A DNA stretch of 64,000 bases, taken from contig CALXRS010000005.1 of the NCBI GenBank assembly GCA_944390915.1, positions 7,663 to 71,662 on the forward strand. Reading direction: 5' to 3'. Shown in pieces: positions 31,471 through 48,909 of this stretch. A program made the translations under genes and the position numbers. The notes under the pieces are model-generated. The model ran no database searches, had not been told where the DNA came from, and was given only the letters and a program-made list of their open reading frames with translations. The DNA is from an uncultured Alphaproteobacteria bacterium (GTDB lineage Bacteria; Pseudomonadota; Alphaproteobacteria; RF32; CAG-239). Every line of letters begins with the position of its first letter. Position 1 is the stretch's first letter.

Positions 31471-31649
31471 TTGAAAGAATTTGAAAAAAAGGGAATTTAT
31501 GTATGCCGTCGGTTTTTTGGGATAACGGATGTAAAACTTCATGAAGTCGATGTTTGTATCTTTGGTTACGCGGCTTAAAATTGTCATTTTTTATTATCCT
31601 TAAATTTTTTTCCGTGCTATAAGGCAAAAAAAGAAAGGCCGAAATCACA

Positions 31650-33236: not shown

Positions 33237-33277
33237 AAAGGTTTGAACGGACGGATAAAACGGAAAAACAAAAGAAA

Positions 33278-33306
33278 AAGGCGGCAGGTTTTGCCGCCTT
33301 CCCTTT
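33278..33306 (+). terminator. terminator after the FAD oxidoreductase gene
   Basis: AAGGCGGCA/TGCCGCCTT hairpin. Confidence 0.6.
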
Positions 33307-33447
33307 AGTCCCTAAAACTTTAGTTATTTGGAGTGCCTGATTTGTTTAGGGATAAAATGTTATTGTTTCTTATTTTTGTCCTATTTTGACATTTTTTGCT
33401 TTATTTGTCAAATAATAAATCCGCACTCCCGTTGCAGAAAAGTTTTG

Positions 33448-33966
33448 TCATTTGTTATCTTTATGTTTTTCCCGACAAATTTTTTCGTGCTCAATATCGG
33501 CCAGAAAATCTTCCAGCTCCTGCTCGTGCTCGAGTTCGTCGTGGAGAATTTTGCGGGCGATTTCGAAAGTTTCGTAGTCTTTGCCGTGGCAGAGGTCGCA
33601 AATTTGCCGGTAGCGATGCACGGCGCAGCGTTCGGAGGCAAGATTTTGCTCCAGCAGAGCGACGGTGCAGGGGTTTTGGGGCGGCAGATAACGGCAGCCG
33701 GCGTGTTTTTCCCAGTCGGCCGGCGAGATAAGCGGCGTGCCCTGCAGTTGGATAATCCTTGCCGCGAGCATTTCGGCATGTTCCAGTTCTTCGTCGGCAT
33801 GTTCGGCAAATTCGGCCTCGACGGCGGTGCGCATCGCTCCCGTCGCCAATTTGGCGCCGAGCCAATATTGATAGTAAGCCAGCCATTCTTCGGCATAAGC
33901 TTCGTTTAACAGTTCAAGCAGCTTATTATAATCAAGTTCACAGATTTCAACGGCGGTTTTTCCCAT
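33448..33966 (-). CDS. ferritin-like di-iron protein (Dps-like/bacterioferritin-related), Cys-rich
   Basis: EEWLAYYQYW, EELEHAEMLAARI and DELEHEQELEDFL ferritin-like ligand helices. ATG at 33966. Confidence 0.8.
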   Translation of the reverse strand: MGKTAVEICELDYNKLLELLNEAYAEEWLAYYQYWLGAKLATGAMRTAVEAEFAEHADEELEHAEMLAARIIQLQGTPLISPADWEKHAGCRYLPPQNPCTVALLEQNLASERCAVHRYRQICDLCHGKDYETFEIARKILHDELEHEQELEDFLADIEHEKICREKHKDNK

Positions 33967-34096
33967 TTTGTTTCTCCTTAAATTGATAAAAAACAATCGG
34001 TCTTCGCAGGATAGATAATTGCCGTTAAAGAAAAATCAACCAGTCGGCGGTTATAATCGGCGGCATAAAAGCACAACAGCATGAAGGAAACAGACA

Positions 34097-34732
34097 ATGG
34101 TTTTGATAGCTCCGAGCCTGCTTGCCGCCGATTTCGGGCGGCTGGCGCTGGAGGCGGCGGCGGTGGCAGATGCCGGCGCCGACTGGCTGCATCTGGATAT
34201 TATGGACGGGCATTATGTGCCCAACCTGACTTTCGGGCCGGCGGCGGTAAAATGCCTGCGGCGGGAAAGCAAACTGTTTTTTGACGTCCATCTGATGGTG
34301 GACAATCCCGACCGGATGGTGCCGTGGTTTGCCGAGGCAGGGGCGGATCTCATCACCGTACATGCCGAGACCTGTGCGCATCTTGATCGCACGTTGCAAA
34401 GCATCCGCGCGCTTGGCAAAAAAGCCGGCGTGTCGCTTAATCCGGCGACACCCGAAAGCGTGTTGGAATATGTTAAAGACAAACTTGACCTGGTGCTGGT
34501 GATGACGGTGAATCCCGGCTTCGGCGGGCAGAAATTTATTCCCTCACAACTGGAAAAAATAAGCAAAATCAAAAAAATGTTTGCCGACAGAGAGGTTTTT
34601 GTCGAGGTTGACGGCGGCATTACCCCGGAAACGGCGCCGCTGTGCCAAGAAGCCGGCGCCGACGTGCTGGTGGCGGGCAGCGCCGTCTTTGGCGGCGGCA
34701 ATTATGTTGCAAATATTGCCGCCTTGCGCTAA
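34097..34732 (+). CDS. rpe: ribulose-phosphate 3-epimerase
   Basis: IAPSLLAADF, HLDIMDGHYVPN and MTVNPGFGGQKF motifs. Confidence 0.95.
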   Translation: MVLIAPSLLAADFGRLALEAAAVADAGADWLHLDIMDGHYVPNLTFGPAAVKCLRRESKLFFDVHLMVDNPDRMVPWFAEAGADLITVHAETCAHLDRTLQSIRALGKKAGVSLNPATPESVLEYVKDKLDLVLVMTVNPGFGGQKFIPSQLEKISKIKKMFADREVFVEVDGGITPETAPLCQEAGADVLVAGSAVFGGGNYVANIAALR

Positions 34733-34766
34733 AATTTATGAAAACGGAAAACGGAGGAAAAACGGC

Positions 34767-35480
34767 ATGGCTCTGGTATTGGTGGTGGAAGACGAAGAAG
34801 CTTTGGCTTTGCTCTTGAAATACAACCTTGAAAAAGAGGGTTTTGAAGTGGCGTTGGAGTCTTCGGGCAACAAGGCTTTGGCGGCGGTGGAAAAATATTG
34901 TCCGTCGGTTATTTTGCTCGACTGGATGCTGCCCGAGCTTTCGGGAGTGGAAATCTGTAAAATGATACGCAACAAACCGGACATTAAAGACATTCCGATT
35001 ATCATGCTGACCGCCAAAGGCGAAGAGGAAGACAAAATCAAAGGCCTGTCGGCCGGTGCGGACGACTATGTGACCAAGCCTTTTTCGGTGCCGGAATTAA
35101 TGGCCAGGGTAAAGACCAACCTGCGCCGCGCGCCCGAACTGCTGCCGCAAAAAGAACTGGTGTTTGAAGATATCCGGATGGATCTGGCGGAGAAAAAAGT
35201 TTTTCGCGGCGACAAATATATTCACCTGGGGCCGACCGAGTTCCGTCTGTTGAAAATGTTGATGGAAACGCCGGGCAAGGTTTTCTCGCGCGAGTTTTTG
35301 CTCAAAAACGTGTGGGGCAACAATATTTATGTGGAATCGCGCACCGTCGACGTGCATATCCGCCGGCTGCGCAAATCGCTTAACGAATACGGCCCCGACT
35401 ATATCCGCACGGTGCGGGCGACGGGGTATGCCATCGACAACCATGCCCATGTCGACGGGGCGGAAGAAAGCGAAAAATAA
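34767..35480 (+). CDS. OmpR/PhoB-family response regulator
   Basis: A receiver domain (VLVVEDEE...ILLDWMLP...LTAK) plus a winged-helix domain (VDVHIRRLRK). No adjacent histidine kinase. Confidence 0.88.
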   Translation: MALVLVVEDEEALALLLKYNLEKEGFEVALESSGNKALAAVEKYCPSVILLDWMLPELSGVEICKMIRNKPDIKDIPIIMLTAKGEEEDKIKGLSAGADDYVTKPFSVPELMARVKTNLRRAPELLPQKELVFEDIRMDLAEKKVFRGDKYIHLGPTEFRLLKMLMETPGKVFSREFLLKNVWGNNIYVESRTVDVHIRRLRKSLNEYGPDYIRTVRATGYAIDNHAHVDGAEESEK

Positions 35481-35588
35481 ATTTTCCCGTGTTTTTGCGG
35501 CGTTGTGCGCCGGATAACGAAAGCCCTTGCGCCGAGCAAGGTTTTGCGGCATGATAGACGGCAAAGTTTATGATGAGGAAAATAAAAA

Positions 35589-36713
35589 ATGAGCCTGAAA
35601 TTCGAACTTCTCGCACAAGACGGAAAAGCCCGCCGCGGTCGGCTTTATACCAGGCACGGCGTTGTCAACACGCCGGCGTTCATGCCGGTCGGCACCTGCG
35701 CCACGGTCAAGGCCATGATGCCGGAATCGGTGGCGGCAACGGGGGCGGAGATTTTGCTCGGCAATACCTACCATCTGATGCTGCGCCCCGGCGCCGATCT
35801 GGTGGAAAAAATGGGCGGATTGCACAAATTTATGAATTGGCCAAAGCCGATTTTGACCGATTCCGGCGGTTTTCAGGTGATGAGTCTGACCGGCCTGCGC
35901 CGCCTGAGCGAAGAGGGGGTCGAGTTCAGCTCGCACGTGGACGGCAAAAAATATTTTCTTTCGCCCGAAGAATCGATGAAAATTCAGCACAAACTTGATT
36001 CCAACATCACCATGTGTCTGGACGAATGCGTCAAACTGCCGGCGCCCTACGATACGGTTAAAAAATCGGTGGAAATGTCCATGCGCTGGGCAAAAAGAAG
36101 CAAAGATGCTTTTGTCGACCGTGACGGATACGGCATATTCGGTATTCAACAGGGCGGAGATTATCGCGATTTGCGCGCTTTTTCGGCGGAAAAACTGAAA
36201 GAAATCGGTTTTGACGGCTACGCTATCGGCGGGTTGGCCGTCGGCGAGGGGCAGGAAAAAATGTTTGAGGTGCTGGATTATGCGCCCGGCATGCTGCCGG
36301 AAGACAAACCCCGCTATCTGATGGGTGTGGGACGACCGGACGATATTGTCGGCGCGGTTTTAAGAGGCGTGGATATGTTCGATTGCGTGATGCCGACGCG
36401 CTCCGGCCGCACGGCGCAGGCCTTTACCCGTTTCGGGACAATCAATATCCGCAACGCCCGCCATCGGGAAGATCCCAGGCCTTTGGAAGAAGGTTGCGAC
36501 TGTCCGCTGTGCACGCATTACAGCCGCGCTTATCTGCACCATCTGCAAAAAGCAAACGAAATTTTGGCGGTGATGTTGCTTACCTGGCACAACATCCGTT
36601 ATTATCAGCGGTTGACGGCCGGCTTGCGGCAGGCGATAGAAAACGGCAAACTGGCGGAATTTGCCGCGGATTTTTATACCTGTCTGAACAGGGGCGATAT
36701 AGAGGAGATGTGA
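35589..36713 (+). CDS. tgt: tRNA-guanine transglycosylase (queuine tRNA-ribosyltransferase)
   Basis: [28 protein letters not shown] and the zinc site CDCPLC...H. Confidence 0.95.
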
Positions 36714-36715
36714 GC

Positions 36716-37633
36716 ATGGAAGAAGAAAAAAAACAAAAAGCGAAAAACCTCAGGGTCTGCGTTTCGGGCGGGCATTGCGACGGCAAAGATCCCGCTTATG
36801 TGGAAGAATGTTATAAGCTCGGGGTAAAAATTGCCAAAATGGGGTTTCGGCTCGACTACGGTTTTTCCAATTCCGGCGTGATGGGAGCGGTGGCACGCGG
36901 CGTGCTCGACAACTGGCAGGAGCGAAAAGACAAATATTACGACAACATCACCCCGATTGTCGGCGTAACCACCCGCGAATATTACGAACTCTACGAAAAA
37001 GACGATATTTTGAAACAGATCAGCGAAGTGGTGGTGGAAGATACGCTCGAAAACCGCAAGATAAAACTACTGGAGGCCGATATTGTCGTGTTTGCCCCCG
37101 GCGGGGTGGGTACGCTTGACGAGCTGGCTTATGACTGCGTGGCCATGCAGGACGGTTTTTTGAAAACCAAACCTTTTATCATGTATAACATCAACGGCTT
37201 TTTTTATCATATTCTGGAATATCTGAAAGAACTTGCTGCAAGCGGGTTTGCGTTGAGGGTGCCGTTTATCGTGGTGGACGACAGCGAAGAGCTGGAAACG
37301 GCTTTCCGTTTGCTAAGGATGCGCTACAACGACTGCGCCGACGCCGCGGAAGCCTACGCCAACGCCCGCCAGCTGGCTTATGAGCTGCCGTATTTTCTGA
37401 AAAAGAAAACCGACAGCAGCGTGCATGTGGAAGACATTTGGGCGGAAATGAAAAAAATTGAGGCTGCCGGCAGCAAAGAACAAAAACAGGTTTTGGCAAA
37501 CGAAATCGAGCAGGCCTATCTGGAAAAGGAAATTGAACGGATGTATGATCGGCTGGCCAAAACCGGTCGCGATACGGCCATCGTCAGCGACAAACTGACC
37601 CGCCTGAAACAAAGGAAGAAAAAATGGAAGTAA
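36716..37633 (+). CDS. LOG-family (TIGR00730) protein with a ~120-aa helical C-terminal extension
   Basis: PGGVGTLDEL motif. The ATG at 36716 is 3 nt after the tgt stop. The 3' end overlaps the next gene by 10 nt. Confidence 0.75.
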   Translation: MEEEKKQKAKNLRVCVSGGHCDGKDPAYVEECYKLGVKIAKMGFRLDYGFSNSGVMGAVARGVLDNWQERKDKYYDNITPIVGVTTREYYELYEKDDILKQISEVVVEDTLENRKIKLLEADIVVFAPGGVGTLDELAYDCVAMQDGFLKTKPFIMYNINGFFYHILEYLKELAASGFALRVPFIVVDDSEELETAFRLLRMRYNDCADAAEAYANARQLAYELPYFLKKKTDSSVHVEDIWAEMKKIEAAGSKEQKQVLANEIEQAYLEKEIERMYDRLAKTGRDTAIVSDKLTRLKQRKKKWK

Positions 37634-39399
37634 AGACTATTCCCGCTTCCGTCTGGTGTTTTTTATGGCGCTATTTTTCACGGCAGAAAACGTTGTTTTT
37701 TGCCCAGCTGTCGGCGATTTTGGCGGGGGAACTGCTGGTGCGGCTGTCGCTTTATTTTGCCGCGGAAATCGTTGAAGTGATCGCCGGTACGGCGGCGCGC
37801 GGCGAGATGCTGGAACAGGCCCTGCGGCTGGCGGTGATTGCCTCTGCCCTGCTGCTTGCCAAAAGCCTGTTGCAAAACACAATCTGTTTTTTGGAGGCGC
37901 GGTTTATGCCGGCCGTACTGGCCAACGTGGCCAAAGATCTGTTTTCCTACGCCCATCAGCATTCGACGGCTTTTTTTGCCGAAGAAATGGCCGGTAATAT
38001 TTCCGGCAAGGCAAAAACCATTATCGACAGCATTTATCCGATTTATTATATCCTGATATGGGGTTTTCTGGCGCCTTTGGCTGCCACGCTGATAACAATC
38101 GGTTTTGTGCTGAAGATTGATGCGACGCTGGCCGCGGTGCTGTTTATGCTTAATCTGCTGGTGGTGTTTGTTATCTATCGTCTAAGCCGGCGTATGGTGC
38201 CCTATTCGGAAAAACGGGCGCAAAAAATGTCGGAGGCAAACGGCGTGTTGGTGGACAGCATTACCAATGCGGGGGCGGTCAAAAATTTTGCCAATTACCG
38301 TTTTGAGCGCAAACATTATTTTCGTTCGATGAAGGCGGCCGCCGCGGCCGATCGGGCGGAATCGCTGAAACTCGGCAAAATATTTATATGGCAGAACCTT
38401 TTTCGGGCGCTGGTGCAAATTGTGTTTTATGCTTTGCCGGTGTGGTTTTGGTATCAGGGCAAAATTTCGGTGGCGGATTTTGTGCTGATGCAGTCGCTGA
38501 TTGCCGTTTTGAGCAACACGTTCGGCATGCTGTCGCTCAATTTTATGCAGTTTTTTAAGGTTTACGGGGGCATTCGCGACGGGTTGCGGCTGCTTTCCCG
38601 CCCGTGCGAGGTAAAAGATATTGACGGCGCGGTAAAACTGGTTGTTAAGAGCGGACGGGTGGAGTTTAGGAACATAAACTATCACTATAAGGGCGCGGCC
38701 TTTTTGTTTGAAAATTTTAATCTGACCGTCGAGGGAGGCGAAAAGGTCGGTTTGGTCGGGCGTTCGGGGTCGGGCAAATCGAGTCTGGTTAAGCTGCTGA
38801 TGCGCTATTATGACATCCAACGGGGAGAAATTGCCGTTGACGGGCAGGACATCGCCCGGGTCACTCAGGAAAGTCTGCGCCGGCAGATTGCGCTGATTCC
38901 GCAGGAACCGGGGTTGTTTAACCGCAGCATTATCGAAAATATCCGTTACGGGCGGCCGCAGGCCACGGATGAAGAAGTTTTTGACGCCGCCCGCAAAGCC
39001 TGTCTTCACGACTTTATTCTCCGCCTGCCGGAAGGCTACGGGACAAAAGTCGGCGAATGCGGGGTCATGCTTTCCGGCGGCGAACGGCAGCGGATTGCCA
39101 TTGCGCGGGCCATTTTGAAAAATGCGCCGATTTTGATTTTGGACGAGGCAACCTCGGCGCTTGACAGCGAAAGCGAAAAATATATTCAGGAATCGCTTGC
39201 CAATCTGATGGAGGGAAAAACCGTCATTGCCATTGCCCACCGGCTTTCCACCCTGCGAGAGATGGATCGGCTGGTGGTGCTAGACCGCGGGCAAATCGTC
39301 GAGCAGGGGGCGCACGCCGCGTTGCTCCGGCAAAACGGTCCTTATCGTAAATTTTATGCCCTGCAGTCCGGGGGCTTTATTGAGGAGGAAGAAAAATAG
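37624..39399 (+). CDS. ABC exporter, fused permease/ATPase (MsbA-like)
   Basis: A 6-TM N-terminal half, Walker A GRSGSGKSS, signature LSGGERQR and Walker B ILILDEATS. Confidence 0.9.
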   Translation: MEVKTIPASVWCFLWRYFSRQKTLFFAQLSAILAGELLVRLSLYFAAEIVEVIAGTAARGEMLEQALRLAVIASALLLAKSLLQNTICFLEARFMPAVLANVAKDLFSYAHQHSTAFFAEEMAGNISGKAKTIIDSIYPIYYILIWGFLAPLAATLITIGFVLKIDATLAAVLFMLNLLVVFVIYRLSRRMVPYSEKRAQKMSEANGVLVDSITNAGAVKNFANYRFERKHYFRSMKAAAAADRAESLKLGKIFIWQNLFRALVQIVFYALPVWFWYQGKISVADFVLMQSLIAVLSNTFGMLSLNFMQFFKVYGGIRDGLRLLSRPCEVKDIDGAVKLVVKSGRVEFRNINYHYKGAAFLFENFNLTVEGGEKVGLVGRSGSGKSSLVKLLMRYYDIQRGEIAVDGQDIARVTQESLRRQIALIPQEPGLFNRSIIENIRYGRPQATDEEVFDAARKACLHDFILRLPEGYGTKVGECGVMLSGGERQRIAIARAILKNAPILILDEATSALDSESEKYIQESLANLMEGKTVIAIAHRLSTLREMDRLVVLDRGQIVEQGAHAALLRQNGPYRKFYALQSGGFIEEEEK

Positions 39400-40628
39400 T
39401 GCTCAAAGCCGTCTGGTCATTTTTCTTTTTGTCGGCTTTTGCGGCGGGGGTGTGGCAGACGGCCATGGGCAACGGCGCCGTGTGGAGCGAAATGGTTGAT
39501 GCCCTGTTTTCGTCCGCCAAGTCGGCTTTTTCCATAGCGCTCGGTTTAACCGGCGTGCTCTGTCTGTGGCTCGGACTGTTAAAAATTGCCGAAAATTCGG
39601 GTGTGACGGCTGTTTTGGCGCGTTGGCTGCGACCGTTTTTTGCCAAAATCATGCCCGGTGTTCCGGCCGGTTCGCCGGCGCTTGGCTCCATGGTGATGAA
39701 TATTGCCGCCAATGTTTTGGGGCTGGACAACGCGGCCACGCCGATGGGGCTGAAAGCCATGGAACAGCTGCAGGAGCATAATCCGCGAAAAGATACGGCC
39801 TCGGATGCCGAAATTATGTTCATGGTGATAAATTCTTCTTCGGTTACATTGATACCGATAACCATTCTGATGTATCGGGCGGAGCTTGGCAGCAGCAATC
39901 CGGCTGCCGTGTTTGTACCGATTCTGATAGCCACTTCGATGTCGACGCTTACGGGTTTTTTAGCGGTGGCGGCGGTGCAGAGGCTCAATATTTTCAACCG
40001 TACGGTTTTGGGCGGCCTGGCGGCAATGTTGTTGGTTGTCGGTGGGCTGGCATGGGGCTTTATGCAGTTGGCGCCGGCGCAGCGGACAGCGGTTTCGGCC
40101 GCCGCCGGCAACGGTATTTTGTTTTTTCTGGCGGCTTTTTTTATTTTTTGGGGACTGATAAAAAAACGCGACGTATACGAAGACTTTATCGACGGCGCCA
40201 AAGAAGGCTTTAAGGTGGCGGTAACGATTATTCCCTATCTGGTGGCCATGCTGACTGCCATTGCCGTTTTTCGCGCTTCGGGAATGTTTGACCTGCTGTT
40301 GACGGGGCTTGAAAATATGTTTGTGCTTTTGGGCGTGGACACGGGCTTTGTTCCCGCTTTGCCGACGGCGTTGATGAAACCTCTTTCCGGCAGCGGGGCG
40401 CGGGCAATGATGATAGAAGCCATGCAGACATACGGCGCGGACAGTTTTGCCGGTTTTGTCGCCTCGGTGGTGCAGGGGTCGACGGAAACGACTTTTTACG
40501 TGCTGGCGGTCTATTTCGGCGCGGTTAAAGTGGTTAAAACGCGCTCGGCGCTGCCCTGCGCTCTGCTTGCCGATCTGGCGGGCATTATTACGGCCGTTGT
40601 TGTCAGTTATTACTTTTTTGAAAGCTAA
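39399..40628 (+). CDS. nucleoside-recognition (Gate) domain membrane protein, fused SpmA-like and SpmB-like halves
   Basis: 409 aa. The GTG start overlaps the ABC stop (TAGTG). The sequence has two homologous membrane halves. Confidence 0.75.
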   Translation: MLKAVWSFFFLSAFAAGVWQTAMGNGAVWSEMVDALFSSAKSAFSIALGLTGVLCLWLGLLKIAENSGVTAVLARWLRPFFAKIMPGVPAGSPALGSMVMNIAANVLGLDNAATPMGLKAMEQLQEHNPRKDTASDAEIMFMVINSSSVTLIPITILMYRAELGSSNPAAVFVPILIATSMSTLTGFLAVAAVQRLNIFNRTVLGGLAAMLLVVGGLAWGFMQLAPAQRTAVSAAAGNGILFFLAAFFIFWGLIKKRDVYEDFIDGAKEGFKVAVTIIPYLVAMLTAIAVFRASGMFDLLLTGLENMFVLLGVDTGFVPALPTALMKPLSGSGARAMMIEAMQTYGADSFAGFVASVVQGSTETTFYVLAVYFGAVKVVKTRSALPCALLADLAGIITAVVVSYYFFES

Positions 40629-40631
40629 AAA
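40091..40631 (+). repeat. copy 1 of a 541-bp direct duplication (3' half of spmAB)
   Basis: Hand alignment with 42211-42751 at a constant offset of 2120 nt gives 17 mismatches and no indels. Confidence 0.95.
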
Positions 40632-40647
40632 TCATCGATTTTGAAAC

Positions 40648-40684
40648 ACCCCTCAAATTGTTGATGAGCAACGGTTTGAGGGGT
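40648..40684. terminator. hairpin between convergent spmAB and the orphan gene
   Basis: ACCCCTCAAA/TTTGAGGGGT, a 10-bp stem with a 17-nt loop. Confidence 0.45.
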
Positions 40685-40701
40685 ATGAAAAACATCTGTT
40701 T

Positions 40702-41664
40702 TTATTCGTTGCCGTAGTCTTTTGTCATTTTCAGGGACGGAGTCTGCGTTGTCCGGGGTATCTGCCGTTCTTCCTCTTTCGGAGCTTCCGTCGTTTCTTT
40801 GTTTGTTTCCAGATTCTGTCGTGCCCGTTTAAGCGAGGAAGTAGTTCTGTTCTCCGGATTCAGCTGCTGATAGCCGCTTTGTTCCAGACGATTGTAAAAG
40901 TCTGCCTGAAATTTTTTAATGTCTTTGGTCGACTGAGTTGCTTTGGTTTCTTCATAACAACGTTTAAGGATTTCCTGAAATTCCGGTGTGTCAAGAAGCT
41001 CTTTTTGCTTCAGAGCCTGAGCGGTAATTTCTTCCAAAAGGCCGTTATCGCCGCTGGCCTTTGCCGACTCAGCCATATTAAATAAAGTATTTTGACGAAC
41101 GGATTCTATCTCTTCTTTGGGGTTGTACGCTTTTCCGCCGCCGATTACCGGACCTATTCTGTAGCCGTTAATATAGGCCTCTATATGGTAGCTTCTTCTC
41201 CCTTCTGTCCCTAAGACATCGGTTGCGGGCAGGTTGTCTTTGTTGTTGTACAGCCTGTCTTTGAATGTAACACTTCCGTTTCTGTGGGTGTGTGTTTTGA
41301 GCGTGTAACAATTTCCTATTTCAGAAACGGTACATCCTCCGTTGTGATGGTGTTCCGTCATTTTACAAAGCTTTCCGTTTTTATAGTCTTTTATAACCAA
41401 CGTTCCGTCTTTGTCATAATAGCTTTCTTTTTGGATAACGTCGTCGGCATAGGTTTTTGTCAATTTTTCGACACCTTGTTCTGAAAAGAAGGTTTGAGTG
41501 CCGTCTTTGATCAGTTTTTTCCCGTCTTTTTTATATTCCGTTGTTTCTTTGACGGAAAAATCGGGGTAATAATCGGTTATGGTTATTTTACCGTCTTTGT
41601 TTTGGCTTTTTTCTGATTGTGGCAGCATTCCCAAAAATTTGCGTATTTTGTTGTTGCGATTCAT
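40702..41664 (-). CDS. hypothetical protein (320 aa), beta-rich N-terminal half and helical, charged C-terminal half
   Basis: ATG at 41664 with GGGAGA 6 nt upstream; the track ORF starts at a TTG at 41697. Visibly more AT-rich than its neighbours. Contains YD-like/MORN-like motifs (SYYDKDGTLVIKDYKNGKL). Confidence 0.65.
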   Translation of the reverse strand: MNRNNKIRKFLGMLPQSEKSQNKDGKITITDYYPDFSVKETTEYKKDGKKLIKDGTQTFFSEQGVEKLTKTYADDVIQKESYYDKDGTLVIKDYKNGKLCKMTEHHHNGGCTVSEIGNCYTLKTHTHRNGSVTFKDRLYNNKDNLPATDVLGTEGRRSYHIEAYINGYRIGPVIGGGKAYNPKEEIESVRQNTLFNMAESAKASGDNGLLEEITAQALKQKELLDTPEFQEILKRCYEETKATQSTKDIKKFQADFYNRLEQSGYQQLNPENRTTSSLKRARQNLETNKETTEAPKEEERQIPRTTQTPSLKMTKDYGNE

Positions 41665-41727
41665 GGCGGTTCTCCCGGAAATTCTTATATAATCCAATTA
41701 TGTGGCAAATTTTGTCAAAAAGCAAGT

Positions 41728-41770
41728 TTTTTTTGCAAAAAAAGCCCGGAACGACCGGGCTTTGCATTTT
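41728..41770 (-). terminator. Rho-independent terminator retained behind the pfk remnant
   Basis: AAAGCCCGG/CCGGGCTTT stem (41741-41763), followed on the minus strand by T7. Confidence 0.65.
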
Positions 41771-41800
41771 ATATATGTTTTTACTGTTGTGGCTGTTCTG

Positions 41801-42211
41801 TTACAACTCTTCGCCGACATACATGCCGATTGCGCGAGCCGCTTTGACGTAGTCGCTGTTGACGTTGAGCAGGGTGGTGCCTTCTCTGACAACCTCATCA
41901 ATATCAAAGTCGCTGATTTTGCTGTTTTTCCACACGACCATCCGGTTGGTTTTGCCTTCTTCCAACAGCTGGACGGCACGGGCGCCGAACATTGTTGCCA
42001 AAATGCGGTCGGTGGCAGCCGGATCGCCGGAACGTTGGGTGTGGCCGAGCGTGGTAACACGGGTCTGAAATTCTTTGCAGCGTTTGTTGATTTCCGTGCT
42101 CAGATAATGACCGATGCCGCCGTAAACCGTTTCGCCTATTTTGTTGGTGGCGGCAGCAACATGTTGTCCGTCTTCGCGTTTGACGCCTTCGGAAACGACA
42201 ATCAGCGCATG
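41801..42211 (-). pseudogene. pfk: 3' fragment (about 137 codons) of a 6-phosphofructokinase gene
   Basis: The minus-frame translation reads ...NHALIVVSEGVKREDGQHV...TRVTTLGHTQRSGDPAATDRILATMFGARAVQLLEEG...*. This matches the PFK C-terminal half (TVLGHxQRGG region). The 5' two-thirds are missing, and the break coincides with the duplication junction. Confidence 0.75.
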
Positions 42212-42748
42212 GTTGCGGCCGCCGCCGGCAACGGTATTTTGTTTTTTCTGGCGGCTTTTTTTATTTTTTGGGGACTGATAAAAAAACGTGACGTGTACGA
42301 AGATTTTATCGACGGTGCCAAAGAAGGCTTTAAGGTGGCGGTAACGATTATTCCCTATCTGGTGGCCATGCTGACTGCTATTGCCGTTTTTCGCGCTTCG
42401 GGAATGTTTGACCTGCTGTTGACGGGGCTGGAAAATATGTTTGTGCTTTTGGGCGTGGACACGGGCTTTGTTCCCGCTTTGCCGACGGCGTTGATGAAAC
42501 CTCTTTCCGGCAGCGGCGCGCGGGCAATGATGATAGAAGCCATGCAGACATACGGCGCGGACAGTTTTGCCGGTTTTGTTGCCTCGGTGGTGCAGGGGTC
42601 GACGGAAACGACTTTTTATGTGCTGGCGGTCTATTTCGGCGCGGTTAAGGTGGTCAAAACGCGCTCGGCGCTGCCCTGCGCTCTGCTTGCCGATCTGGCG
42701 GGCATTACCGCCGCCGTTGTTGTCAGTTATTACTTTTTTGAAAGCTGA
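42209..42748 (+). CDS. stand-alone SpmB-like membrane protein (179 aa), duplicate of the C-terminal half of spmAB
   Basis: The ATG at 42209 lies exactly at the duplication boundary. It differs from copy 1 at only 3 amino-acid positions. The track ORF 41702-42748 extends it through antisense pfk sequence. Confidence 0.55.
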   Translation: MVAAAAGNGILFFLAAFFIFWGLIKKRDVYEDFIDGAKEGFKVAVTIIPYLVAMLTAIAVFRASGMFDLLLTGLENMFVLLGVDTGFVPALPTALMKPLSGSGARAMMIEAMQTYGADSFAGFVASVVQGSTETTFYVLAVYFGAVKVVKTRSALPCALLADLAGITAAVVVSYYFFES

Positions 42749-42751
42749 AAA
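42211..42751 (+). repeat. copy 2 of the 541-bp direct duplication
   Basis: See copy 1. Homology ends within a few nt after the stop codon (TAA in copy 1, TGA in copy 2). Confidence 0.95.
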
Positions 42752-42808
42752 AGTACGGTAAACGAAAGATTCGTTTGAGAAAAGCCTTGCGCGAAGAATC
42801 GGAAAATA

Positions 42809-43540
42809 TCAGATCTTCCGCCAGCGGATGCGGATTTTTGCCAGTTCGCGGTTGTCGCTGTCGGCATAAATGCCGTGTGTTGTCACAAGCCCGTCGATTT
42901 GCGTGCGGATGACGGCGTTTTCGCCGAACAGGCCTTCTTTCTTAAAGGCGATTTCCAAAGCCTGCGGTACATGTTCCAGCCGGAAATCGGCAGGCACGGC
43001 CTCCGTTGCCCATAATGGATAAACGGCATTGTTGACATGATGGTTGACGTCTATGTCGTCATAGCGGATTTTGAAAACTTCGCGGCAGTCTTCGCGCTCG
43101 GGGTCGGGCAGTCGGGCAAAATCCGTTTCCAACGCACGTTCCGGAATAACATGGTATTCCGGTAAGTTATCGCGCAGGCAGACGGGCCGTTTTCTGGCAA
43201 AATCTATCAACACCCATTGGCTGGAGGCGCGGATAATCTCTTTTCCCTCTTCGTCGCGGATAATAAAATCACGCACGGCGCCAAGCTTTTTTTCCACCGC
43301 CGGCCACGACTGCACGGTAATATTTTCGTGCCAAGCGGGCAGGCGGTTTATTTCTATCTGATAGTTTGAACCCACCCAGGCCAGTCCGTGCGCCTGACAA
43401 TGTTCAATTCCCACGCCGATGTTCGAGGCATGGCTGTCGGCCGTATCCTGAAAAATATTCATCAGCGTCAACAGGCGCAAAGTCCCGCTGCGATCGCATT
43501 CATAACTTTTAATATGATAGGCGCAGGTTATTTTATCCAT
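42809..43540 (-). CDS. acyl-ACP thioesterase (FatA/B-like)
   Basis: Double hot-dog pattern: YECDRSGTLRLLTLMNIFQDTA...GLAWVGSNYQIEI...WVLIDFARKRP. ATG at 43540 with GAGG upstream. Confidence 0.8.
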   Translation of the reverse strand: MDKITCAYHIKSYECDRSGTLRLLTLMNIFQDTADSHASNIGVGIEHCQAHGLAWVGSNYQIEINRLPAWHENITVQSWPAVEKKLGAVRDFIIRDEEGKEIIRASSQWVLIDFARKRPVCLRDNLPEYHVIPERALETDFARLPDPEREDCREVFKIRYDDIDVNHHVNNAVYPLWATEAVPADFRLEHVPQALEIAFKKEGLFGENAVIRTQIDGLVTTHGIYADSDNRELAKIRIRWRKI

Positions 43541-43566
43541 AATCAACCTCGGTTATCCTAAAAAAA

Positions 43567-44244
43567 TCAATCCCGCAGGGAAAGTCTGATTTCTTCCTTT
43601 TCTTCCTCTCCGTCGCCCCACAACAAGCGGCTCAGCCAGTTACGTTCTTTCTTCGGTTCGACTCGCACGTCCGCCGAAGCATAAAGGGTGGTATAGGTCT
43701 GGTGACCTTTTTTCACCGTGTCAAGTTCTGCCAACAACCGTTTGCGATAGGCCTTTGCCTTTGCCGGCCGGCGCGAATGATAGTCGGTTGCCGCCTGCAT
43801 CCAGTCCTGTCGACGATCATAAAGCCGTTTCAGAAAACGGGCGGCATAGGCCACGTTCTTTTCGGGGTCGAAAGCGTCTTCCAGACTGGCAAACTCTTTG
43901 CCGTGGAAATACATGTTTATCTGCATGCAACCGACGTCAAAATTTTTGATGCCGCGTTTTTGCAATGCCTTTGCCGCGGCCACGGCCGCTTCTTTGGTTT
44001 TGTAATAATGACCTTTTCCGCGCACGTTGATTGTCCACGGCCAAGCCATTTTCTGCTGCGCAAATTTATTCCATTTGCCGGTTTCCACCGTGGAGATGGA
44101 GGTCAGCAGATATTCTTTAATCTGATATTTTTCTTCCGCCTTGGTCGTAGCATCCATACAGATAAAACCGTCATCAACGGCCTTTATCTGCTCTGCACCC
44201 GCCGTTGCCGGCAGAAGGAGCATCAGCAATATAAGAAAAAACAT
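43567..44244 (-). CDS. lytic transglycosylase-domain protein (exported)
   Basis: Signal peptide MFFLILLMLLLPATAGA, plus VETGKWN...WPWTINV...DVGCMQINMYFHG. ATG at 44244. Confidence 0.75.
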   Translation of the reverse strand: MFFLILLMLLLPATAGAEQIKAVDDGFICMDATTKAEEKYQIKEYLLTSISTVETGKWNKFAQQKMAWPWTINVRGKGHYYKTKEAAVAAAKALQKRGIKNFDVGCMQINMYFHGKEFASLEDAFDPEKNVAYAARFLKRLYDRRQDWMQAATDYHSRRPAKAKAYRKRLLAELDTVKKGHQTYTTLYASADVRVEPKKERNWLSRLLWGDGEEEKEEIRLSLRD

Positions 44245-44431
44245 TAAAAAATTGATACTTCCAGCAGTATCCCTCTGTTTCCCCGGACTGCCACGAACAT
44301 CCCTCAGGCCGGTGGCCGATTTCAGTTCGCTTAAAGGCAAAACAATAAGCAAATAAATCCGGAGGCAGTTTATACATTACGGCTTTTTTCAAGCCCCATT
44401 GCACTCACAAAACAGGGGGTTTATAGCACAT

Positions 44432-45316
44432 TTATTTCTTAAAATCCAGTAAAAAATTTCCCAGGTCGACGATGGCGGCGCAGATGTCCGAGCTAACATA
44501 TTGAAAATTTTGTATTTTTTTATACACAGGCTCGTCTTCGTACAGACTGCGGTTAATTTCCATTTGCAGGGTGTAGATGCTTTTGCGCGGTTGGCAATAG
44601 TTGAAGCTGATATGGGCGCCGGAATAGGGGCAGTCGAGGCTGACATTGTATTTTTGCTGCAGCCGCTGCATGAAAAATTCGTACATTTCGGCGGGACAGC
44701 TTTGTTCGAACAAAGTGCCGAGACAAAAGTCTATTTGCCGGTTGTCCTGCATGATGTTGCAGATTTTTGACGGCATGGAATGGCAGTCGAGCACCAGGCA
44801 GAACCCGAACCTTGCGACCGTACGGTCAATCAGTTTCTGCAAATGCGCGTGATAGGGCATATATATTTTTTTAATGCGCTCGCAGGCTTCTTTATAATTC
44901 AGAAGACCGTCGTAAATGTTTTTGCGGGCGGCGGTAATGCGGTGGAAAAGCCCCAGCCCGACGCGGCTGCGTTTGTTGTTAAGGGCGGCTTCCGTCTGCG
45001 GGTAGTTGTAAAACATGGCCGGATCGACCTCGATAGAGTCGCGGTTGACGTCGATGAATGCCCGTCCGATGTTAAGCGACAGCATCGGTATGCCCAGATC
45101 GGAGGCGTCCGCGACCAGCTCGTCGACAAAGGGGTCTTCGTTGCTGCGCAGCTCGTCGACGGAAACACAGACATGCTCCAGAAACTCCGGCGGAAACACC
45201 TGCCCGCTGTGCGGCACGGAAAGCACCAACGGATAGCGCGGATCTTTGGTGTTGCGCTCGCTTAAAATGTCAAGCTTTGAATAGTCAACCTTAAAATCAA
45301 TTTTTTTATCTGTCAT
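44432..45316 (-). CDS. N-formylglutamate amidohydrolase-family protein
   Basis: LSVPHSG, DVNRD and LDCHSMPS motifs. ATG at 45316. Confidence 0.8.
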   Translation of the reverse strand: MTDKKIDFKVDYSKLDILSERNTKDPRYPLVLSVPHSGQVFPPEFLEHVCVSVDELRSNEDPFVDELVADASDLGIPMLSLNIGRAFIDVNRDSIEVDPAMFYNYPQTEAALNNKRSRVGLGLFHRITAARKNIYDGLLNYKEACERIKKIYMPYHAHLQKLIDRTVARFGFCLVLDCHSMPSKICNIMQDNRQIDFCLGTLFEQSCPAEMYEFFMQRLQQKYNVSLDCPYSGAHISFNYCQPRKSIYTLQMEINRSLYEDEPVYKKIQNFQYVSSDICAAIVDLGNFLLDFKK

Positions 45317-45493
45317 GGCTGCTCCGAACTTTTTTGCAATATCATGATAATAACAAAAGATTAACTTTTTGATAACAAAATATCCCGTTGCCGTCGGGCT
45401 CTCCAAAAGGCAAAAGACAAATTTTTTGGCGTTCGCTTAAAAAAACACTTGCCAAATGATATTAAATAAGTTAAACAGATAGCCGTTGACAAC

Positions 45494-45569
45494 GGGTGTG
45501 TAGCTCAGCGGTATGAGCACTACGTTGACATCGTAGGGGGCACAGGTTCGATCCCTGTCACACCCACCA
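45494..45569 (+). tRNA. tRNA-Val (anticodon GAC), CCA encoded
   Basis: Cloverleaf folded by hand: acceptor GGGTGTG/CACACCC, D arm GCTC/GAGC, anticodon arm CTACG-TTGACAT-CGTAG, T arm ACAGG-TTCGATC-CCTGT, discriminator A plus CCA. Confidence 0.93.
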
Positions 45570-45576
45570 TTTTGTT

Positions 45577-45610
45577 AAGAGCGGTCGGCTTTTGCCGGCC
45601 GCTCTTTTGC
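45577..45610 (+). terminator. terminator after tRNA-Val
   Basis: A 13-bp stem AAGAGCGGTCGGC/GCCGGCCGCTCTT followed by TTTT. Confidence 0.75.
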
Positions 45611-45697
45611 GTTTGGGAGGAGCCGGATAATAAAAAAAACGTTTTCGGGCAAAATGCCCGAAAACGTTTTTTGGTGCTGTCTTTTTTTCCGGATTGT

Positions 45698-45943
45698 TCA
45701 GGCGGCCGTTTTGCGCCGGTTGAAGGAAACGGAAGTGCGGAAAAAACCGCTGACAAAACCCAAAAAGGCGCCTATCTGCCACATTTTGAACCCGCTGATG
45801 CCGATGGCGGCAAGGATTCCCAATATGGTTTTGCCGAAAAACCAGCCGACTACCCAGCCGATAAAAGTTCCCATTAAAGTGCTTAAAAGAACGCCCAAAA
45901 AAAGCATGACTGCCGTAAGCAGCGCATAAATCAGTTTTTCCAT
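45698..45943 (-). CDS. small membrane protein (81 aa, 2-3 TM)
   Basis: Highly hydrophobic: LLTAVMLFLGVLLSTLMGTFIGWVVGWFFG. ATG at 45943. Confidence 0.55.
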   Translation of the reverse strand: MEKLIYALLTAVMLFLGVLLSTLMGTFIGWVVGWFFGKTILGILAAIGISGFKMWQIGAFLGFVSGFFRTSVSFNRRKTAA

Positions 45944-46054
45944 ACAATTTTAATTTAATTAATAATCCGTAATAACGGCGCCATTATAAGCCTGCGGGTC
46001 GTTTTTGTCAACCGATGTCGCCCGTCCGCGGATTGTCGGTTTTGCATGCCGGGG

Positions 46055-47380
46055 CTATGGTTGTTGCGGGCGGATGGCGTTTACCGTTTGTCGGATAAAA
46101 TTCTGATAGGTTTTGTTGCTGTCGATAATTTCCTGCGCGTGGCGGTCGGTTTCCGAGCACAGCACCGGCAGGGTGATTTCGTCGTTCAGGAATTTGCGGG
46201 CGACGGCTTCGTCAAAGTTTTCCACTTTTTCCTGTTTGTACTGGCGGACAATCAATTCGATAATGGCCGGTTTTAAGGCCATGAACTCGCTCATGATGCT
46301 TTCGTCCATCACTTTTTCCAGCTTGATGCGGAAGAATGTCCAGGCCTGCTCCATGGTCAGTCCGTAGGGCTGCAGCCGTTCGTTGATGATTTTTATTTCG
46401 GGCGCGAAATATTTGGCGTAAACCTTGGGGAAGTTTGTCATTTCATAGCCCTGTTTACGGCAAAAATCGGGGTATCCTTCCATCATCCGGTAGGTGCTGC
46501 CGAGAGCAAGCCCCAGATTTTCGTCGTTTTGTTCCGCAGGCATGCGGAGAAACAGTAGCCCGAGGTTAAGCGCCAGCCCGAGCAGAACGACGGCGATTTC
46601 CGCCTTGCCGACAAAAGCGGGCATCTCCAGTTTGCGGTTGCTTTTGCGGTCGTGAAAGTTAATGCGTTTCTGCACGGCGGCAAGCAGAAACAGCCCGACA
46701 ATCCAGGCTGCCAGATAGCCTGCCCACAACAAAGGCAAAAAATTTTGCGCGCCCGTCCACAGCAGGGGGACGACGCCGAGCGCCGCCTGCAACGGCAGCA
46801 AAACGGCATAGCCGCCGGCAAATGCGGTAAAATGTTTGCCTTCGGTTTTGCTTCGGTTCAGGTTGAGGCGGATTATTTTCATCAGCGGCCAGACAAAAAA
46901 GATGCCGAACACAATCCCCTGCCAGAAGGGGCGTATTTCTTCGTCGCGGGCGTCTTTGCGCACCGCCTGCCAGTTTTTGTACAGCCAGTAGAACTCAAAC
47001 AGCCCGCCGCTCAAAAAGGCTGCCGCCGCCAGTTGCCGCGTCGGCAGCTGATAGAAAATGACCGGTCGGCTGTAGTTGACGTTTTGGTTGCGGGCGATAA
47101 AGTTTTTGATATGTTGCAGTCGGAGCCTGTCGGCAATGAAGGCGCAAACCGTCCGCATGACGAGCAAAACCGCCGCCGCGGCCGTCCAGCTGCCGAAAGC
47201 GATGAGCGTGGTTGCCGCCAGTGCCGTGCCGAGCGCAAACCATCCGGCAAACCAGGCGTACATGCCTTTTGCCAGAAAGTAAAAAGAGTTGAAAACAAAA
47301 GCGTATGCCGAAAAACGCCGCGGCGCCGAAGCGTCTTTAAGTTCTTTCTGATAAACGGATAATTTTGTTTCTGTATGCAT
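46055..47380 (-). CDS. hypothetical membrane protein with a soluble C-terminal domain
   Basis: Several TM helices followed by a ~150-aa soluble tail. I prefer the ATG at 47380 over the TTG at 47428. Confidence 0.6.
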   Translation of the reverse strand: MHTETKLSVYQKELKDASAPRRFSAYAFVFNSFYFLAKGMYAWFAGWFALGTALAATTLIAFGSWTAAAAVLLVMRTVCAFIADRLRLQHIKNFIARNQNVNYSRPVIFYQLPTRQLAAAAFLSGGLFEFYWLYKNWQAVRKDARDEEIRPFWQGIVFGIFFVWPLMKIIRLNLNRSKTEGKHFTAFAGGYAVLLPLQAALGVVPLLWTGAQNFLPLLWAGYLAAWIVGLFLLAAVQKRINFHDRKSNRKLEMPAFVGKAEIAVVLLGLALNLGLLFLRMPAEQNDENLGLALGSTYRMMEGYPDFCRKQGYEMTNFPKVYAKYFAPEIKIINERLQPYGLTMEQAWTFFRIKLEKVMDESIMSEFMALKPAIIELIVRQYKQEKVENFDEAVARKFLNDEITLPVLCSETDRHAQEIIDSNKTYQNFIRQTVNAIRPQQP

Positions 47381-47523
47381 GGCGCCCCTCTTGTGGTCAA
47401 GGTTAACCGTTTTAGGCGTTCGGGTCAAGCGGATAAATTATTTTGTTGGCAACGAAAAATCTTGATAATAAAACAACTTCCCGCTACAGTCGGATAAAAC
47501 GGAAAACATCGGGACAAGATTAA

Positions 47524-48909
47524 ATGAACAGGAAGTTAAAATATATATTGTTTGCGGCGGTATTTGCCGGCGGCTACTGCAGCCTGTCGCTGGAACTGGC
47601 GGTCATGCGTCAGCTGAGCGGTTTTGTCGGTTCGACGGCGGTCACCGCGTCCGTTATCATCGGCGTCATTTTGGCTTTTATGTCTTTCGGCTACTGGCGC
47701 GGGTCGGTGGTTTCCGTGCGCAAAAACCGTCTTCGCCGGCATCTTGCTCCCGATTTTATCCTGATTGCCCTGATGACGGCGTTTGCCTCCTCTTACATAT
47801 TGATAGACGTATATTTTATGGCGATGAACGCTGTCGGTATCCGTTCCAACGTGGCGCAGACTTTTGTTTACTCGTTTGCCTTTTTGTCTTTTGCGCCTTA
47901 TCTGTTCGGCAAAATCACGGCCGTTCTCAGCCGCTACCTCTACCGTTTTGACCGCAACAACGCGGGGCGCATCATGGCGGTGGATACCATCGGTTCGGTG
48001 CTCGGTTCGCTTTTGACCACGCTGGTGATTATGCCCTTTGTCGGCGTTAATCACACGGTTATGCTGATTACGGCGATAGCGTTGTTTGCCGCCTGTCTGC
48101 TCGGCAGCCGCGACTATGCCGCCATGGCGGTTATTTTGCTGATGGTGTTTTTGCTCAACCGCGATTCGCTGTTGGCCGACATTTATCATATTGTCGAAAA
48201 CAACGCCGTTTCGACCATTGCCATAGAAGAAACCGACGACGGCCGCTCAAAAATCATGTTTATGAACGGCGGCGGCGCCTCCAAAGTTTCCGAAGACAGG
48301 GAACTTCGTTTCGGTTACGTTCGTTTTGTCGAGGACAATTTTATCTCTTTTTTGCCGACGTCGGGCAAGCCTAAAAAAATTCTGATAATCGGCGCCGGCG
48401 GTTTTACCATGGGGCAATATGACGATTTTAACGACTATACCTATATAGACGTCGACGCTTCCCTAAAAGAAGTGTCTGAAAAATATTTTTTGCCGGAACC
48501 CCTCGGCGATAATAAAAAATTTGTGGTGGCCGATGCCAACCAGTTCTTAAAGGAAAACGACGTGCAATATGATCTGGTGGTGCTCGACACCTATTCCAGT
48601 CAGCGGATTATTCCGCTCGACCTGGTAACGGCGGAATATTTTGCCCGTGTGCGGCGGGCGGTGGCGCCGTCGGGCATGGTGGTTATGAACATAGTGGCGT
48701 CGCCGCCCTTTTCGTCGCCGTTGTCGCAAAAGCTGGACAACACGATTCGCAGCGTGTTTACGGGCTTTTTGCAACGGCAGGTCATCGGTCGTTTCGACGC
48801 CTGGTGCCGCAGCGACTGCCCGCTTCGCAACCTGATGTATGTGTGGTACAATCTGCCGGAAGAAAACGCCGTCTATACCATCAACAAAAATTCGGCTTTT
48901 TACGACTGA
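47524..48909 (+). CDS. membrane-bound spermidine-synthase-like protein (N-terminal multi-TM domain plus aminopropyltransferase/methyltransferase fold)
   Basis: ILIIGAGGFTMG and DLVVLDTYS Rossmann motifs follow about 7 hydrophobic helices. Confidence 0.65.
   Translation: MNRKLKYILFAAVFAGGYCSLSLELAVMRQLSGFVGSTAVTASVIIGVILAFMSFGYWRGSVVSVRKNRLRRHLAPDFILIALMTAFASSYILIDVYFMAMNAVGIRSNVAQTFVYSFAFLSFAPYLFGKITAVLSRYLYRFDRNNAGRIMAVDTIGSVLGSLLTTLVIMPFVGVNHTVMLITAIALFAACLLGSRDYAAMAVILLMVFLLNRDSLLADIYHIVENNAVSTIAIEETDDGRSKIMFMNGGGASKVSEDRELRFGYVRFVEDNFISFLPTSGKPKKILIIGAGGFTMGQYDDFNDYTYIDVDASLKEVSEKYFLPEPLGDNKKFVVADANQFLKENDVQYDLVVLDTYSSQRIIPLDLVTAEYFARVRRAVAPSGMVVMNIVASPPFSSPLSQKLDNTIRSVFTGFLQRQVIGRFDAWCRSDCPLRNLMYVWYNLPEENAVYTINKNSAFYD

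Follow-up and report, generated by a model that had tools for sequence, protein, structure and literature searches.

A direct repeat of the SpmB-like half of spmAB in an uncultured gut alphaproteobacterium as the probable scar of a microhomology joint between two chromosome arrangements

We analysed a 64,000-nt stretch of DNA (hereafter the window) from an uncultured human-gut Alphaproteobacteria bacterium (GTDB lineage RF32; CAG-239; assembly GCA_944390915.1, contig CALXRS010000005.1, positions 7,663 to 71,662 of the forward strand). It carries an intact spmAB gene and, behind an orphan gene and a remnant of pfk (pfk′), a second copy of the SpmB-like half of spmAB. The repeat is probably the scar of a microhomology-mediated illegitimate recombination that joined two chromosome arrangements of one species. 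The anatomy of the junction, the alternative arrangements, their recovery in other samples, shared polymorphisms and a deletion derivative were all observed directly. To judge from the sequences compared, the second copy is most likely a non-functional relic in the course of being lost.

A repeat search in the window detected a direct repeat with a start-to-start spacing of 2120 nt. Copy 1 (40091..40631, plus strand) is the SpmB-like 3′ half of intact spmAB with 3 nt past its stop codon, and copy 2 (42211..42751, plus strand) is a 5′-truncated spmAB fragment comprising the SpmB-like half, probably a relic. Base-by-base comparison at an offset of 2120 reproduced the repeat as first described, with 17 mismatches in 541 bp and no indels; 30-nt blocks were 87–100% identical inside 40091–40631 and fell to a background of about 25–40% outside it. 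The classes of mismatch reported in the initial annotation were all recovered. Eleven are isolated, synonymous third-position changes (40169, 40175, 40184, 40196, 40259, 40310, 40397, 40460, 40499, 40529 and 40535), one is a first-position change from T to G at 40095, paired with 42215 (TCG to GCG, Ser to Ala), a 4-nt cluster at 40588–40592 turns Ile-Ile-Thr into Ile-Thr-Ala (IIT to ITA), and the stop codon at 40627 is TAA in copy 1 and TGA in copy 2. In their spmB-derived part, the two copies differ in protein by two residues only. A simple tandem duplication was rejected since the flanks differ at once past the repeat, with the orphan gene following 40631 and a thioesterase gene following 42751. 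A transposon target-site duplication was also rejected, as 541 bp is far too long and neither a transposase nor a terminal repeat is present.

The left edge of copy 2 lies at a junction, J2, marked by a 14-nt microhomology, GGTTGCGGCCGCCG (42211..42224), common to pfk, read antisense, and to spmB. Identity to pfk extends through 42224 and identity to spmB begins at 42211, the overlap being these 14 nt; the counterpart in copy 1 is GGTTTCGGCCGCCG, which matches at 13 of 14 positions. When the whole of pfk was compared with the whole of spmAB (all pairs, in this orientation), the J2 pair was the sole pair of 14-mers with at most one mismatch. At J2, a short microhomology thus links two otherwise unrelated sequences, a new junction of the kind seen in homology-facilitated illegitimate recombination (HFIR). 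That process, known from Acinetobacter baylyi, Streptococcus pneumoniae and Pseudomonas stutzeri, combines one homologous anchor with a joint at 3–10 bp of microhomology (PMC6382021). Since the first 14 nt of copy 2 also end the pfk remnant, the mismatch at 40095/42215, taken at first for a Ser-to-Ala change, is a pfk base. The left boundary had been placed at an ATG (42209). This ATG is indeed in place and opens a 179-aa frame, but it derives from pfk and not from spmB: read on the pfk strand, it is a His codon, CAT (CAC in L001, a contig of the same species). In the same way, the proposal that the duplication copies exactly the SpmB-like half holds for the size of the product, which matches SpmB end to end, but not for the left edge, which is a recombination joint and not a gene boundary. 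On this evidence, the left edge of copy 2 is best read as a microhomology-guided illegitimate joint. It falls in the Ala-rich linker that separates the SpmA-like from the SpmB-like half because that is where this GC-rich match happens to be.

Comparison with public contigs revealed the arrangements on either side of this joint. In the A-type, found in the distant relatives L053, L056 and L062, the genes TGT-LOG-ABC-spmAB are followed directly by thioesterase-SLT-FGase on the opposite strand, that is, by the right-hand genes of the window. The A-type is the ancestral arrangement, and the left flank of the window is also kept in the nearest species (L005 and L006). In the B-type, found in at least five contigs of the species itself (L001 and L093–L096), ABC and spmAB are followed by the orphan gene, an intact pfk and rpsU, and no second spmB copy was present. 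L001 is colinear with window positions 31645–42224 (10.6 kb, about 98% identity) and then continues into an intact pfk of 360 aa, also found intact in L093 and L095, followed by rpsU, mdh, acpP and fabF. This colinear stretch provides an extended homologous anchor to the left of the joint, the other element of an HFIR-type event. The window has its own arrangement, here called W-type: to the left of the joint it follows the B-type as far as a position within pfk, and to the right it follows the A-type, starting within spmB. The colinearity with L001 and the A-type synteny in relatives bear out the initial suggestion that the interval between the copies marks a rearrangement or insertion.

We consider it very improbable that the duplication is an assembly artefact, whether through chimeric joining of two strains present together or through mis-assembly of the repeat. 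The sequence evidently comes from a metagenome-assembled genome, the species being diverse in strains, and two short de Bruijn contigs (L084 and L087) break at the repeat, at 42717 and 40597, which are equivalent positions of the two copies. However, contigs from other samples and studies span the hybrid: L082 (sample BRZ_KP) matches window positions 40320–48419 over 8100 bp with one mismatch (99.99%), and L083 (sample ONAT22-1) matches 40915–43978 over 3064 bp with three mismatches (99.9%). Between them, these contigs cover the sequence from the 3′ part of copy 1 to the thioesterase gene, including the orphan gene, pfk′, the junction and copy 2, with 0–3 differences, the same range by which W-type contigs differ from the window over 3–8 kb. 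Furthermore, the joint shares just 14 nt, less than assembler k-mer sizes, and the copies differ at 17 sites. The duplication therefore stands as a real structure, as first described. Apart from these points, the Logan contigs L086 and L087, from two runs of one study, both end at 41933 inside pfk′. The breaks in the Logan contigs suggest branches in the assembly graph, arising from co-occurring strains or from the repeat.

Sister strains of the window have lost most of copy 2. Three contigs from another study (L090, L091 and L092; V-type) are colinear with window positions 31802–52706 except for a 642-bp gap, the segment 42013..42654, deleted at imperfect 14-nt microhomologies (CAAAAyGCGsTCGG). 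The deletion takes half of pfk′ and all of copy 2 except its last 97 bp. The 97-bp remnant has copy-2-type states (ITA, TGA and G at 590), and the adjoining pfk sequence has the haplotype of the window at 41983–42007; the V-type therefore derives most simply from a W-type ancestor. Copy 2 is dispensable in the V-type strains, and it is because of this deletion that we consider copy 2 to be in the course of being lost.

The excess of synonymous changes between the copies had been taken as evidence that both have been maintained by purifying selection since they diverged. Nei–Gojobori counts over unambiguous spmB-derived codons gave 13 synonymous and two nonsynonymous differences between copy 1 and copy 2 (dN/dS, omega, 0.047), and 17 and none between copy 1 and the spmAB allele of L001. 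The dead pfk′ fragment, compared with the intact pfk of L001, gave 27 and four (omega 0.037). As this fragment cannot encode a working enzyme and yet shows the same signature, the synonymous signature predates the truncation. Furthermore, other strains (L091, L090 or L001) have 13 of the 16 copy-2 states, the TGA stop included, in spmAB genes that are intact and full-length. L091 has a single spmAB gene, with the copy-2 state at 13 sites, one of them the TGA stop, and the spmAB gene of L090 is a mosaic of states. The differences between the copies are therefore mostly standing alleles and were not made in place, and the initial claim of selection on both copies is not upheld.

It is accordingly quite unlikely that copy 2 functions as a stand-alone spmB gene, an expressed paralogue under purifying selection formed by fission of spmAB with a start taken from antisense pfk. 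In its favor, the 179-aa frame is intact, and its product is colinear, end to end, with stand-alone SpmB-like proteins of 173–181 aa at 58–67% identity; omega between the copies is low, and the W-type arrangement occurs in at least three samples. In contrast, a functional paralogue would be expected to show a synonymous excess dated to after the duplication, and the excess is shared by dead pfk′ and made up of states that are alleles of intact genes elsewhere. It would also be expected to be retained across related strains, and V-type strains lack 42013–42654 while B-type strains lack a second copy. Both the ATG and the boundary appear to be accidents of the microhomology joint. W-type contigs are nearly identical (0–3 nt), so that the lineage is too young to carry a signal of decay or selection, and the intact frame is consequently uninformative. 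Consensus scans found no sigma-70-like promoter on the plus strand at 41764–42208, although weak or atypical signals would escape such a scan, and no Shine–Dalgarno motif in the 20 nt before the ATG at 42209. A terminator hairpin lies upstream of copy 2, whereas the start of intact spmAB overlaps the stop of the ABC transporter gene. These negative scans and the deletion of most of copy 2 in sister strains run counter to the initial view that copy 2 is probably an expressed gene; it probably goes unexpressed. A related proposal, that copy 2 is a newborn gene arising by natural fission, with a cryptic promoter in antisense pfk′ and gene conversion with its parent gene, seems to us slightly less credible still.

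The repeat copies seem, from the distribution of their diagnostic bases, to interact. All three differences between L083 and the window fall in copy 2, at the consecutive diagnostic sites 42379, 42430 and 42517, and all three are copy-1 bases. In L086, the copy adjacent to the orphan gene is copy-2-type through 40592, yet has the copy-1 stop codon. These swaps of state reflect either gene conversion between the copies or phase switching by the assembler inside the repeat. A silent cassette of the Neisseria type, or a related uptake-sequence mechanism, was considered and rejected because the window contains no DNA uptake sequence and the host is an alphaproteobacterium. A diversity-generating cassette was likewise rejected as an explanation of exchange between the copies, since they differ by only two residues.

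We infer the direction and route of the transfer as follows. A segment of B-type DNA would have entered a cell with the A-type arrangement. Its left side would have recombined homologously and its right side illegitimately at the microhomology, as in HFIR, with the crossover between the B-type molecule within pfk and the A-type molecule within spmB. Equivalently, a 2120-bp circle closed at the microhomology may have been integrated by a single crossover in spmB. Either route would leave copy 1 as an intact spmAB and copy 2 as a 5′-truncated fragment of spmB, with the orphan gene and a dead 3′ fragment of pfk between them. The 3% divergence between the copies, which is mostly synonymous, would have arisen in intact genes of different strains, and later exchange between copies and between strains would have reshuffled the alleles.

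An origin within one genome is also conceivable, and we regard it as unlikely while keeping it in view. According to this explanation, a single template switch, resembling microhomology-mediated break-induced replication, occurred in an A-type ancestor, copied the orphan gene and pfk′ from the native pfk locus into the junction between spmAB and the thioesterase gene, and re-copied 541 bp of spmB. The B-type would have arisen later by homologous recombination between the insert and the native pfk locus, and copy 2 would still be a relic. This explanation needs no unobserved A-type strain within the species and is in keeping with the microhomology at the junction; moreover, the window is ancestral on its two flanks, unlike L001, which is derived on the left as well as the right. 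However, the copies would have been identical at birth, and their allele-like 3% divergence would need later replacement by recombination. In addition, the related pfk locus of L097 has no adjacent orphan gene, and the reciprocal locus that is predicted in B-type genomes was not seen, the thioesterase gene of L085 adjoining an unrelated gene. Under HFIR and under the intragenomic route alike, copy 2 is a by-product of the joint.

We favor the joining of two arrangements, although several observations weigh against it. The A-type was found only in relatives with 62–64% SpmAB identity and in no strain of this species, so that the A-type recipient is a reconstruction. The 14-nt microhomology exceeds the 3–10 bp typical of experimental HFIR, and uptake of DNA by this organism, through competence or otherwise, would have to be assumed. 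The frame of copy 2 is intact and encodes a complete SpmB-size module with an in-frame ATG, and the youth of the W-type lineage leaves no time for decay to show. Finally, the apparent exchange between copies in L083 and L086 could be a product of phase switching in the repeat.

This study provides a caution for the interpretation of duplicated genes. When two copies within the same genome have a low dN/dS, it does not follow that selection acts on both, because the copies can be alleles that diverged in intact genes of different strains and were later united by recombination. Here, the adjacent dead pfk fragment serves as an internal control for the synonymous excess. The locus also offers a clean natural microhomology joint in an uncultured human-gut alphaproteobacterium, of which the parental B-type, the hybrid represented by the window and the decayed V-type were all recovered from public metagenomes. 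It is an ordinary structural variant in a young strain lineage. It may be of interest for studies of structural variation and recombination in gut bacterial populations, and it represents no new kind of system.

The intact spmAB gene (39399..40628, plus strand) encodes 409 aa with two Gate/nucleoside-recognition domains, and its protein is 100% identical in L001. The host falls in the group deposited as “Azospirillum sp. 51_20” or “CAG:495”. The best SpmAB match among GTDB representatives was 83%, the host species not being represented there. The 409-aa protein scored 64.9 bits against the Gate family PF07670 in two stretches (cut-off 29.6), and copy 2 alone scored 34.8 bits; against NCBIfam, copy 2 gave only a weak, sub-threshold match. 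Many of its homologues are named “spore maturation protein SpmB” by the Joint Genome Institute (JGI) and NCBI. The potential 179-aa open reading frame (ORF) of copy 2 (42209..42748, plus strand) is open upstream to a GTG at 41702 through antisense pfk′, and public gene callers gave it as 328-aa and 348-aa versions. In exact-protein look-ups, the maximal ORFs of the orphan gene (331 aa), the thioesterase gene (245 aa) and copy 2 (179 aa) were unrecorded, and the start codons of the public callers gave matches. On the left, the start of the ABC transporter gene lies inside the end of the LOG-like gene (37624–37633), and the GTG start of spmAB at 39399 overlaps the stop of the ABC transporter gene. 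These overlaps of a few bases suggest that the genes form a translationally coupled operon, conserved throughout the group as TGT-LOG-ABC-SpmAB.

Between the copies lies the orphan accessory gene (40702..41697, minus strand), an ORF of 331 aa that public assemblies give as 320 aa. Its GC content is low (37–44%, against 50–56% in its neighbours), it had no Pfam or NCBIfam match above threshold, and tblastn found it in contigs of this species only. The pfk′ remnant (41801..42224, minus strand) retains ~140 codons from the 3′ end of a gene for ATP-dependent 6-phosphofructokinase and lacks ~225 N-terminal codons. Its frame has no start codon, the longest startable ORF being 66 aa. A GC-rich hairpin between A and T runs (41741..41763) forms an intrinsic terminator of pfk on the minus strand and would also hinder plus-strand read-through towards copy 2. 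To the right of copy 2 lies the acyl-ACP thioesterase gene (42809..43546, minus strand; 245-aa ORF), the ancestral right-hand neighbour of spmAB. No intact pfk is present within the 64-kb window, and none assignable to a W-type genome was found elsewhere: a search with the fragment gave only fragments, and the full-length search and the listing of its cluster led to L097 and to pfk genes in B-type contexts. At the 3′ end of pfk′ (41801–41900) and in the intergenic region 41698–41800, W-type contigs have a haplotype of their own. The former region differs by about 11%, and the latter by about 8%, from all B-type and V-type contigs, the neighbouring orphan gene differing by only about 1%. The haplotype at 41698–41900 looks like a small patch imported from a more divergent lineage.

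Further variation was observed around the locus. In the B-type contigs L093 and L094, an extra 4.4-kb island with genes of 818 and 408 aa (L093 12279–16310) lies at the same spot, and neither gene had a Pfam or NCBIfam match above threshold. The region following spmAB resembles an accessory hotspot with content that varies among strains. L097, from a related strain (94.6% identity), has an rpsU-70aa-pfk-nitroreductase locus that lacks both the orphan gene and spmAB; an internal deletion of 26 bp causes a frameshift in its pfk (599–1648; called as 317 aa), which is either a pseudogene or an assembly error. L085 (sample BRZ_RD; 1509–1808) diverges from the window at 42797 and shows yet another arrangement: next to its thioesterase gene lies a convergent gene of unrelated sequence (C-terminus ...NGWFVFIE), with no spmB sequence. 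An origin of the B-type by simple inversion was rejected, since this gene next to the thioesterase is not the nitroreductase gene that follows pfk in L097. On the left, L001 departs from the window at 31645 (L001 1–1713), with a glycerol-3-phosphate dehydrogenase neighbour. Between its response-regulator and TGT genes, L001 also has a stretch of about 550 bp (L001 5553–6104) that includes a 133-aa gene and is absent from the window (35485–35502). The differences shown by B-type genomes therefore go beyond a single rearrangement.

The locus can be compared with three known systems. The intact spmAB and copy 2 recall the spmA and spmB genes of Bacillus subtilis, as well as fused Gate-domain proteins annotated as “nucleoside recognition domain-containing”. 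The SpmB protein of B. subtilis has 178 aa, and even the Bacillus proteins have no known biochemical activity (PMC3533761). Both halves here carry PF07670 Gate domains, and copy 2 is close to the size of SpmB; in contrast, the host is a non-sporulating alphaproteobacterium, and the halves are fused in the intact gene. A role of copy 2 or SpmAB in dehydration of the spore core or in spore maturation would be implausible in an alphaproteobacterial host. The structure also resembles a Campbell-type single-crossover integration, in that a 541-bp direct duplication flanks a 1579-bp insert and one copy is complete while the other is 5′-truncated. However, no vector, plasmid or integrase is present, and the 2120-bp circle closed at the microhomology is postulated. 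A third likeness is to HFIR. As in that process, kilobases of colinear homology lie on one side, a GC-rich microhomology joint of unrelated sequences lies on the other, and the net outcome is the insertion of DNA from a foreign context. The locus differs from HFIR in the length of the microhomology (14 nt, with 13 of 14 matching, against 3–10 bp) and in that donor and recipient appear to be strains of the same species with different gene orders, the “foreign” DNA partly duplicating a gene of the recipient.

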